In this document: positions 43,724 through 44,190 of the stretch, piece by piece
Layout: each line of letters begins with the position of its first letter
Position numbering within the stretch: position 1 is the stretch's first letter
Assembly (NCBI GenBank): GCA_043722755.1
Contig: JAYSOO010000100.1
Span: 1-44,265, forward strand
Source of the DNA: Candidatus Parcubacteria bacterium
Lineage (GTDB): Bacteria; Patescibacteriota; Minisyncoccia; Phycocordibacterales; CAIZLB01
Direction of reading: 5' to 3'
DNA length: 44,265 nt
Made by a program: the position numbers and the translations under genes
Notes under the pieces: model-generated
Databases searched by the model: none
Told to the model about the DNA's origin: nothing
The model's input: only the letters and a program-made list of their open reading frames with translations

Positions 43724-43751
43724 TTGACAGATCTGTTCCTTTTGCTATAAT
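43724..43751 (+). promoter_or_regulatory. promoter of the candidate sRNA (MazF-like copy 2)
   Basis: TTGACA, a 16-nt spacer ending TGC, then TATAAT. Confidence 0.6.
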
Positions 43752-43757
43752 ATAAGC

Positions 43758-43808
43758 ACAAATGGGTTATCCCGGACATCCGAGCTTTTCAGCTCGGATT
43801 TAATTTTT
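43758..43808 (+). ncRNA. candidate sRNA convergent with MazF-like copy 2
   Basis: Driven by promoter 43724-43751. Its 5' end ATAAGCAC matches copy 1 (ATAAAGCAC). Hairpins GGG-TTAT-CCC and ATCCGAGC/GCTCGGAT (43778-43799), then a T-rich tail reaching the toxin stop codon. Confidence 0.5.
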
Positions 43809-44190
43809 ATAATAGATCTTTTATGCGGATTTTAATCCTAGCAAAATCTTCTCGCGACACATAACCTATAAATTGATACAGTCTTTTGGTATCAAGAATC
43901 CTTAGTTGAGATATAATTGCTGATTGCTCAACGTCTTTAATTAAGACTTTTACATAATATTTATTATCTTTATTCTTCGTACTCATAGGTATACCCCAAA
44001 ATATATTATTATTAAATTTTTTAAGCACCAAAACCGGCCTAAGAAAATATTCTCCTTTGCCGTTTTGCTCGAAACCTATATTTTCACCCAATAAACACCA
44101 ATACACTTCGTGTTCATTGATGCATGTTTCCTTGTAGGTTTTGTCTATAATTATTTTGTTAAATATCCATGATATAAATCTTTTTGTCAT
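43807..44190 (-). CDS. MazF/PemK-family toxin-like protein (orphan, copy 2)
   Basis: HEVYWCLLGENIGFEQNGKGEYFLRPVLVL and QLRILDTKRL. Paralog of 29171..29560. No antitoxin ORF is visible, but the window ends 75 nt upstream. Confidence 0.75.
   Translation of the reverse strand: MTKRFISWIFNKIIIDKTYKETCINEHEVYWCLLGENIGFEQNGKGEYFLRPVLVLKKFNNNIFWGIPMSTKNKDNKYYVKVLIKDVEQSAIISQLRILDTKRLYQFIGYVSREDFARIKIRIKDLL

Follow-up and report, generated by a model that had tools for sequence, protein, structure and literature searches.

A MazF-like toxin gene of a Parcubacterium and its conserved convergent small RNA, a probable antitoxin

In type III toxin-antitoxin (TA) systems the toxins are endoribonucleases of the Kid/MazF-like fold superfamily, and the known antitoxins are tandem repeats of RNA that are processed by the toxin. 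In type I systems such as txpA/RatA and bsrG/SR4 of Bacillus subtilis or par of Enterococcus faecalis (fst RNA I/RNA II), the two genes are convergent and share a 3′ terminator or overlap in it. The locus described here has features of both. It lies near the end of a stretch of 44,265 nucleotides (nt) from a Candidatus Parcubacteria bacterium (contig JAYSOO010000100.1 of assembly GCA_043722755.1; the whole stretch is called the window in the following), where a gene for a MazF-like protein of 127 amino acids (aa), copy 2 of two paralogs in the window, is read from the minus strand (43807-44190) and is faced on the plus strand by the gene of a predicted small RNA (sRNA). A model that saw only the sequence had drawn attention to this arrangement (the original prediction). 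Comparison with homologous loci has now shown that in at least four phyla this toxin subfamily is accompanied by a conserved gene for a predicted structured, convergent sRNA of about 50 nt, and we consider it likely that the sRNA is the antitoxin, by whatever mechanism it acts.

The closest described relatives are found on plasmids and in prophages. Searches of plasmid and phage proteins yielded homologs with 35-48% identity on the plasmid pVir of Campylobacter jejuni 81-176, on Helicobacter suis plasmids, on a plasmid of Nitratiruptor sp. YY08-14 (NZ_AP023062.1, 24558-24956) and in CJIE4 prophages, and in all four settings a convergent promoter and a hairpin-rich RNA are found at the 3′ end of the toxin gene, the RNA of the Nitratiruptor plasmid being of the canonical class described below (TATAAT, 6 nt, AUAAAU, and the hairpins P1 and P2). 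IMG/VR contributed one distant match, and among the GenBank phages only Campylobacter prophages of the CJIE4 type were found. On pVir the gene in question is pVir0047 (30634-31038), a PemK/MazF family member and the only annotated toxin of the plasmid, whose product shares 41% identity with the window protein (89% of the query aligned, E = 2e-14). Its convergent promoter (TTGATT-17-TATAAT) precedes a three-hairpin RNA that ends 5 nt from the stop codon. Differential RNA sequencing assigned the transcription start site at 31119 on the minus strand a score of 16164 as compared to 28 for the toxin's own start site (about 600 times), and a 77-nt sRNA convergent to pVir0047, CJpv3 (31119-31043), was detected by Northern blot (Dugar et al., 2013). 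Moreover, CjrA, an antisense sRNA that is the antitoxin of a type I system, is attributed to pVir in passages of two later papers (citing Shen et al., 2016, Mol Microbiol 101:909). CjrA and CjpT of pVir are probably the CJpv3/pVir0047 locus, an identification that we infer. The convergent-sRNA layout of a MazF-like gene noticed in the original prediction is real but not unprecedented, since Campylobacter plasmid homologs have it and one of their RNAs was detected experimentally.

How is the sRNA gene of the window built? Its promoter consists of a −35 hexamer TTGACA (43724-43729), found at the same distance from the RNA in the 74 loci compared below, and an extended −10 element, TGc TATAAT (43743-43751, with TATAAT at 43746-43751), which is also evident from the family profile; the two hexamers are parted by a 16-nt spacer ending in TGC and score 12 of 12 against the consensus. 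The RNA itself (43758-43812, plus strand) is predicted to be about 49-55 nt long, with its 5′ end at A43758 and its 3′ end in the U-tract at 43800-43812. It opens with a hexamer, ACAAAU (43758-43763; family consensus A-Y-A-W-A-Y), which according to the comparison of 74 loci is single-stranded, and continues with two hairpins predicted from folding and covariation: P1, GGG-UUAU-CCC (43764-43773), and P2, AUCCGAGCU-UUUC-AGCUCGGAU (43778-43799), the latter being the 9-bp stem of an intrinsic terminator with five G-C pairs. The U-rich tail follows, and the last nucleotides of the sRNA are antisense to the toxin stop codon (43807-43809). A covariance model made from close relatives (R2) matches the window RNA at 43756-43805 with 61.9 bits (E = 1.2e-10). 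Since two exact matches to TTGACA-N16-18-TATAAT are present in the 44-kb window where 0.08 are expected, and since the 58-nt RNA stretch folds with −17.9 kcal/mol (z = −4.2), a chance origin is unlikely. The sole other perfect TTGACA-N16-TATAAT of the window is located at 33112-33139 on the plus strand, antisense inside an open reading frame (ORF, 32818-33600). The sequence bears out the original prediction in the coordinates of both promoter hexamers, the TGC spacer, the GGG-TTAT-CCC hairpin, the terminator stem and the T-rich tail reaching the stop codon. Its proposal of a convergent RNA gene of about 50 nt is likewise upheld, as judged from conservation, except that the start has to be moved 6 nt downstream, from 43752 to A43758; the resemblance of the start regions of the two copies, ATAA(A)GCAC, to which it had pointed, does not coincide with the part that the comparative data identify as conserved.

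For the comparison one genome per GTDB species was scanned, which gave 481 confirmed relatives of the toxin, mostly from Patescibacteria. Eighty loci were fetched, the RNA was read from the opposite strand of the 110 nt that follow each toxin gene, and 74 sequences were curated from these loci and the window; loci close to the window are referred to as group A and more distant ones as group B. In almost every locus the same plan is found: a promoter of the form TTGACA-16/17-TAnnnT, six variable bases, then ACAAAU or one of its variants (AUAAAU, ACAAAC, AUAAAC, CUAUAC), then P1, a tetraloop hairpin of 3-4 bp that covaries across the family (GGG-UUAU-CCC, GGC-UUCG-GCC, the stems CGAC/GUCG, UGGC/GCCA and GUCU/AGAC, and others), a linker of 0-6 nt, a P2 stem of 4-15 bp that is freely variable in sequence and often capped by a GNRA loop, and finally an A/U-rich tail. 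The hosts are Patescibacteria of many classes, joined by metagenome-assembled genomes (MAGs) labelled Alphaproteobacteria, Bacteroidetes, Limisphaerales and Campylobacterales. Across Patescibacteria, Alphaproteobacteria, Bacteroidota, Verrucomicrobiota and Campylobacterota, ACAAAU and P1 are kept, whereas the sequence of P2 turns over. Within the hexamer the three A's at positions 3-5 are 93-100% conserved. When the loci are anchored on P1, the −10 element emerges with frequencies of 0.88 for its T, 0.86 for its A and 0.96 for its final T, accompanied by a TG dinucleotide at about 0.7 and a conserved −35 element. In 88% of the loci an A, the one that opens ACAAAU, is found 7 nt past the −10 element, so that the RNA is predicted to begin with the hexamer.

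The structure is supported by compensatory changes. As MAFFT misaligned P2 in mixed sets of RNAs, it was replaced by a structural alignment of 64 hand-parsed, N-padded sequences (A6), in which 15 of 19 pairs show double-sided changes and covariation reaches 0.572, as compared to 0.115 in shuffled alignments (none of 500 as high) and 0.05-0.12 with slid pairing partners; the 100% pairing in this alignment is circular because it was built from the structure. An alignment free of this circularity, made by MAFFT from sequence only with 21 members of the close group (A7), still has 94% paired cells, double-sided changes in 8 of 12 pairs and a covariation of 0.434 versus 0.242. In addition, folding favours the convergent strand over its complement in 67 of the 74 loci (means of −17.4 and −14.3 kcal/mol, p = 1e-12), UUCG and GNRA loops are present on the convergent strand only, and G-U pairs are frequent. 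R2 found 30 matches in 481 kb, all of which face the 3′ end of a toxin gene convergently and a single one of which lies in the window, and a scan with a looser descriptor gave 69 matches in 474 kb, 61 at toxin 3′ ends, compared to 1-3 in shuffled sequence. A covariance model built from 12 uniform group B seeds (R1) was too narrow: it misses the RNAs of the window and of the Nitratiruptor plasmid even with the filters off, and it gave no match at the pVir locus (L090), where R2 was not run. Rfam 15, including its pemK RNA motif, ToxI and the type I antitoxin RNAs, gave no match at the gathering level for the window and 20 further loci, and scans by E-value returned chance or terminator-driven matches only. 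Sub-threshold matches to ar35 and Atu_C9 on one locus (L037) were rejected as terminator-driven, their alignment extending into promoter DNA, and ar35 does not match the rhizobial locus L061 either. Two copies of the sRNA were seen apart from an intact toxin gene, one without a detectable adjoining MazF-like ORF (L058, 2328-2369, minus strand) and a high-scoring one next to a frameshifted toxin paralog (L017, 2796-2848, minus strand); from their sequences they look like antitoxin RNAs that outlived their toxins.

The protein faced by this RNA appears from sequence and model to be a MazF-fold nuclease with the conserved catalytic Arg and Ser/Thr. Copy 2 matches the Pfam family PemK_toxin (PF02452) with 44.2 bits (cut-off 23.1, E = 2.4e-11) but reaches merely 17.7 bits with the NCBIfam MazF equivalog (cut-off 120), which places it in a divergent subfamily; the NCBIfam profile of the type III toxin CptIN is matched faintly (E = 0.0064, 16.3 bits, cut-off 90), and none of the defence-system models of PADLOC matches either toxin copy. 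In an alignment of 29 family members R50, within a GKGxxFxRPVL motif, and T70 never vary, and the conservation of S69 is at least 90%. A profile search against the PDB aligns R50 and S69/T70 with the positions of the catalytic residues in the Staphylococcus aureus and B. subtilis MazF proteins, namely the Arg of the RPxxV motif and the Thr/Ser. The AlphaFold2 model (predicted local distance difference test score 85.4, predicted template modelling (TM) score 0.79) consists of the SH3-like barrel of MazF/Kid and an additional N-terminal helix (residues 2-16), and the 50 best Foldseek matches in the PDB are all MazF/PemK-type toxins with TM scores of 0.6-0.7 (top about 0.66). Several hundred homologs exist; those of Parcubacteria/Paceibacteria share 60-84% identity, and one MAG often has several paralogs, with 2-4 copies per genome of about 1 Mb. 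The toxin gene has a putative promoter of its own, an extended −10 element (TGA TAGTGT, 44197-44205, minus strand) that ends 6 nt before the ATG. The same TGnTAnnnT element at similar spacing is seen in copy 2 (44191-44205), copy 1 (29561-29575) and many other loci, and because it ends about 6 nt from the ATG and no Shine-Dalgarno sequence precedes these genes, the toxin mRNA is predicted to be leaderless. Further upstream, phased CTTTA repeats conserved in close relatives hold the blocks TCTTTAGAATTTTT (reverse complement of 44229-44242) and AAAACTTCGG (reverse complement of 44247-44256), together spanning 44229-44256 on the minus strand, whose order and spacing are kept in group A loci.

Is there a protein antitoxin? 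A Logan contig with an identical toxin gene (L001) extends 1087 nt beyond the end of the window, and its next upstream gene, on the same strand and separated by a gap of 164 nt, encodes a 195-aa DedA/VTT membrane protein, which rules out an antitoxin gene just past the window. The gap itself contains two TTG-initiated ORFs of 30 aa, which were judged implausible, and no plausible antitoxin ORF. Identical contigs occur in the sequencing runs SRR23617248 and SRR22198338. In copy 1 only 121 nt separate the toxin start from pheT. No mazE/pemI-type antitoxin gene adjoins the toxin on either side in L001, at copy 1 or in about 70 homologous loci. The upstream neighbours in the latter are unrelated genes of 170-880 aa, so that the module is found in variable contexts. 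A conserved small upstream ORF was considered as antitoxin and rejected, as the candidates in these loci are mutually unrelated; a BolA-like protein and a translation across an apparent tRNA gene are examples of such stray ORFs. The toxin gene, called an orphan in the original prediction, has kept this status on the sequence beyond position 44265.

The two genes meet in a narrow region. Between the end of P2 and the toxin stop codon lie 7.5 nt in the median, with 0-30 nt as the distance in 67 of 74 loci, and the first run of at least four T's is located within or past the stop codon in 61 of 66 loci, from which it follows that the RNA must end inside the last toxin codons. In group B a third hairpin contains the toxin stop codon and, being flanked by A-runs and U-runs, constitutes a bidirectional terminator. 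In the window no U-tract follows the shared hairpin on the toxin strand and no good terminator is present past the stop codon, so that transcription of the toxin gene may continue across the entire sRNA gene. A different spacing was seen among L018, L080 and related loci: in L080 (431-690) the sRNA does not abut the toxin stop codon but follows it at a distance of about 220 nt, the stretch between them being unassigned sequence.

What does the sRNA do? One could argue that there is no functional RNA at all, the hairpin being merely the bidirectional terminator of the toxin gene and the promoter match fortuitous, as the surroundings are AT-rich (about 31% GC near the locus) and weak promoter-like sites are common there (7 with at least 9 of 12 matches versus 4.5 expected). 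However, promoter, hexamer and P1 are conserved in 74 loci with constant distances between them, the convergent strand is favoured by covariation and by strand asymmetry, and a homologous RNA was seen on a Northern blot; covariation, the promoter profile and the scans with R2 and the descriptor effectively refute this explanation, to which we accord very little probability. Even less credible is a micro-peptide antitoxin encoded by the short transcript. The AUG within the conserved ACAAAUGG does open a 13-codon ORF, MGYPGHPSFSARI (43761-43802, plus strand), and the U creating this AUG is present in about 76% of the loci, but about 24% have ACG instead, neither the reading frame nor the length and sequence of the ORF is conserved, and the substitutions in the stems are compensatory, not synonymous, so this candidate was rejected. 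Alternatively, the RNA could serve the nuclease as cofactor, guide or specific substrate, or be an sRNA that this enzyme processes or an independent regulator that travels along. Such a role would fit a toxin family that, with its sequence identity and copy number, is unusually conserved for a TA toxin, and the conserved 5′ tail might just as well serve recognition or processing; yet variable contexts, plasmids, prophages and type III restriction-modification and DUF3800 neighbours are TA- or defence-like behaviour, and an RNA antitoxin has been reported on pVir, as quoted in the later papers. We therefore regard a role other than that of an antitoxin as unlikely.

Assuming an antitoxin, does it act on the mRNA or on the protein? 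Pure cis-antisense action resembling type I, which we hold to be possible if somewhat doubtful, would have the sRNA pair with the 3′ end of the toxin mRNA, its 3′ untranslated region or its read-through tail without ever touching the protein, whereupon RNase III, for instance, would cut the duplex, or toxin expression would suffer interference from convergent transcription. The convergent, overlapping geometry is universal, the bidirectional terminator hairpin of group B includes the toxin stop codon, the sRNA has a consensus promoter as compared to the extended −10 element only of the toxin gene, and CjrA, encoded on the plasmid whose MazF-like gene has exactly this layout, is called a type I antisense sRNA antitoxin in the passages mentioned above. 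Antisense action leaves unexplained, however, why the non-overlapping hexamer and the geometry of P1 are best conserved across phyla and why the 5′ part lacks complementarity to the body or 5′ end of the toxin mRNA; moreover, a soluble nuclease of 127 aa is unlike the small membrane peptide typical of type I. Pairing in trans as in par, between the 5′ part of the RNA (ACAAAU and P1) and the toxin mRNA, was rejected, as no general complementarity was found (mean z = −0.33). A weak recurrent pairing was noticed in about 8 of 23 group A loci, which are non-independent cases, between leader plus P1 and the WGIP codons of the own mRNA (z = −2 to −2.9); the site lies within the F-W-G-I-P codons, at about 43990-44010 in the window, and no other part of the family shows this signal.

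On balance the locus is tentatively read as a compact two-gene module of a toxin and an RNA antitoxin in which neutralization at the protein level is preferred only slightly over antisense action, as antisense pairing offers no account of the conserved 5′ tail. ACAAAU and P1, which show the highest conservation within the RNA, are located away from the stretch shared with the toxin ORF and have no general complementarity to the toxin mRNA. These two features, the turnover of P2, an RNA class that tracks the toxin subfamily and the persistence of intact RNA copies in L017 and L058 would slightly favour direct binding to the toxin; a MazF groove holding a 5′-terminal pseudo-substrate would be mechanistically plausible. 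According to this proposal the abundant sRNA would neutralize the nuclease by inserting its single-stranded 5′-ACAAAU tail, in the role of a pseudo-substrate or a mimic of the product, into the RNA groove of the MazF protein. As the hexamer starts at +1, a cleavage site at this position would lack the upstream nucleotide. P1 and P2, possibly touched by the additional N-terminal helix, would add affinity, resulting in something close to a type III system without repeats, and the common 3′ terminator would also couple both transcripts in cis. When synthesis of the sRNA falls, through loss of the module, shut-off of transcription or infection, free nuclease would cleave cellular RNA. Protein-level and antisense action may also operate together. 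The broader proposition, that a large and misannotated MazF/PemK subfamily (481 GTDB loci) is neutralized at the protein level by a single-copy, non-repetitive sRNA with an uncleavable ACAAAU, is one that we advance with still more reserve.

Several observations weigh against neutralization at the protein level. The strictly convergent layout, with P2 so close to the stop codon, resembles a cis-antisense design, and the sole studied relative, that of pVir, is described in the literature as an antisense antitoxin of type I. Read-through of the toxin transcript may extend its complementarity over the full length of the sRNA, with the hexamer ACAAAU as part of it. Furthermore, AYAAAY/ACAAAU is neither depleted nor enriched in the toxin ORFs (z about 0), and thus nothing ties the hexamer to the cleavage specificity of the toxin. 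Finally, the tandem repeats characteristic of type III antitoxins are absent at the locus.

The window contains a second such pair. Copy 1 (29171-29560, minus strand), by Pfam match and identity a paralogous MazF-like toxin gene, encodes 129 aa with 33% identity to copy 2 and is faced by a promoter (TTGACA-16-TAACAT) and a convergent sRNA (29081-29173, plus strand) with a first hairpin of 5-6 bp (29118-29132), a U-rich linker, a small GCC-UUCG-GGC hairpin (29136-29145) and a terminator (29147-29170). This RNA is conserved with compensatory changes in all three hairpins in L025, an 87%-identical ortholog of copy 1, and in the more distant relatives L083, L085, L087 and L089, and additional RNA classes accompany other paralogs (L008, L023). 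The layout thus appears, from sequence comparison, to be common to diverged toxin subfamilies, each with an RNA class of its own. That the same layout surrounds two diverged paralogs, as had been proposed originally, is thereby substantiated, compensatory changes in orthologous loci included, with the amendment that the two RNAs belong to different structural classes; the short blocks said to recur upstream of both toxin genes on the minus strand in differing order were also found again. Just downstream of copy 1 (28328-29044, minus strand) a 98-aa DUF6922 protein and a 119-aa protein without family match are encoded, which may constitute a separate two-gene module.

Downstream of copy 2, on the toxin strand, follow a DUF3800 gene (38809-39480) and the res (39548-41818) and mod (41825-43510) genes of a type III restriction-modification system, a neighbourhood that suggests a defence island. 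The 210-nt spacer between the mod start and the sRNA promoter (43511-43720) folds on the minus strand with −74.9 kcal/mol (z = −6.0) and on the plus strand with −52.8 kcal/mol (z = −2.0). It contains a helix of about 19 bp, has an 81%-identical copy at the matching position in L023 (908-1148) and no match in Rfam; it may serve the restriction-modification operon as a structured 5′ leader or else represent an RNA of unknown kind. L023 (850-1620) and the window (43500-44190) have the mod start, this 200-nt element and a similar promoter region in common, after which L023 continues with a different cassette of sRNA and MazF-like gene, its toxin being only 31% identical. At the sequence level this looks like replacement of a cassette at a conserved site.

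If neutralization at the protein level holds true, it would represent a TA mechanism apart from both classical type I antisense and the processed arrays of type III, with a new structured RNA family. The database label "type II toxin-antitoxin system PemK/MazF family toxin" appears to misfit a subfamily that, according to the present data, has no protein antitoxin and a conserved sRNA partner, and annotations and TA censuses of Patescibacteria and Campylobacterota should be revised. Genomes of the candidate phyla radiation (CPR) of about 1 Mb that carry 2-4 such modules, one of them beside type III restriction-modification and DUF3800 genes, suggest a role in defence or genome stabilization in unculturable organisms. 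The conserved 5′ tail poses the testable question of whether an RNA can directly inhibit a MazF, and the canonical copy on the plasmid of a cultured Nitratiruptor and the pVir relative open experimental access to it.

How does the module compare with the described systems? Toxins of type II systems, MazEF and PemIK, have the same fold, Pfam family and catalytic residues as the window toxin but are encoded next to a protein antitoxin, whereas the window has a convergent sRNA in its place and the toxin an additional N-terminal helix. Type III systems (ToxIN, CptIN, TenpIN) are echoed by the faint match to the CptIN profile and by their structured RNA, made in excess from a strong promoter in the absence of a protein antitoxin, for which a counterpart is proposed here. 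Their RNA is, however, a repeat array upstream on the same strand, in contrast to the single-copy, downstream and convergent RNA of the window, and the window toxin is a true member of the PemK/MazF Pfam family, unlike their toxins ToxN, AbiQ, CptN and TenpN. The 3′-overlapping type I systems share the geometry, but their toxins are hydrophobic peptides of fewer than 60 aa, and the window RNA, whose predicted 3′ tail overlaps the toxin stop codon, has its conserved part outside the overlap, lacks complementarity elsewhere and shows no par-like pairing of its 5′ part. Closest is CjrA/CjpT of pVir, presumably the CJpv3/pVir0047 pair with its homologous toxin and a convergent sRNA that ends at the toxin stop codon; the RNA, which is highly expressed on pVir, belongs to another sequence and structure class without the ACAAAU-P1-P2 core, and the toxin mRNA has a 26-nt leader in contrast to the predicted leaderless mRNA of the window. 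In the literature we found no description of a wide CPR family with a conserved RNA nor, for CPR, of a MazF paired with an sRNA. One studied example of the general arrangement, in which a convergent sRNA serves a MazF-like toxin as antitoxin, probably already exists on pVir. What appears to be new is the ACAAAU-P1-P2 RNA family outside Rfam, its breadth of hundreds of loci, mainly from Patescibacteria and frequently with several in one genome, and the conserved 5′ module that raises the question of inhibition at the protein level.

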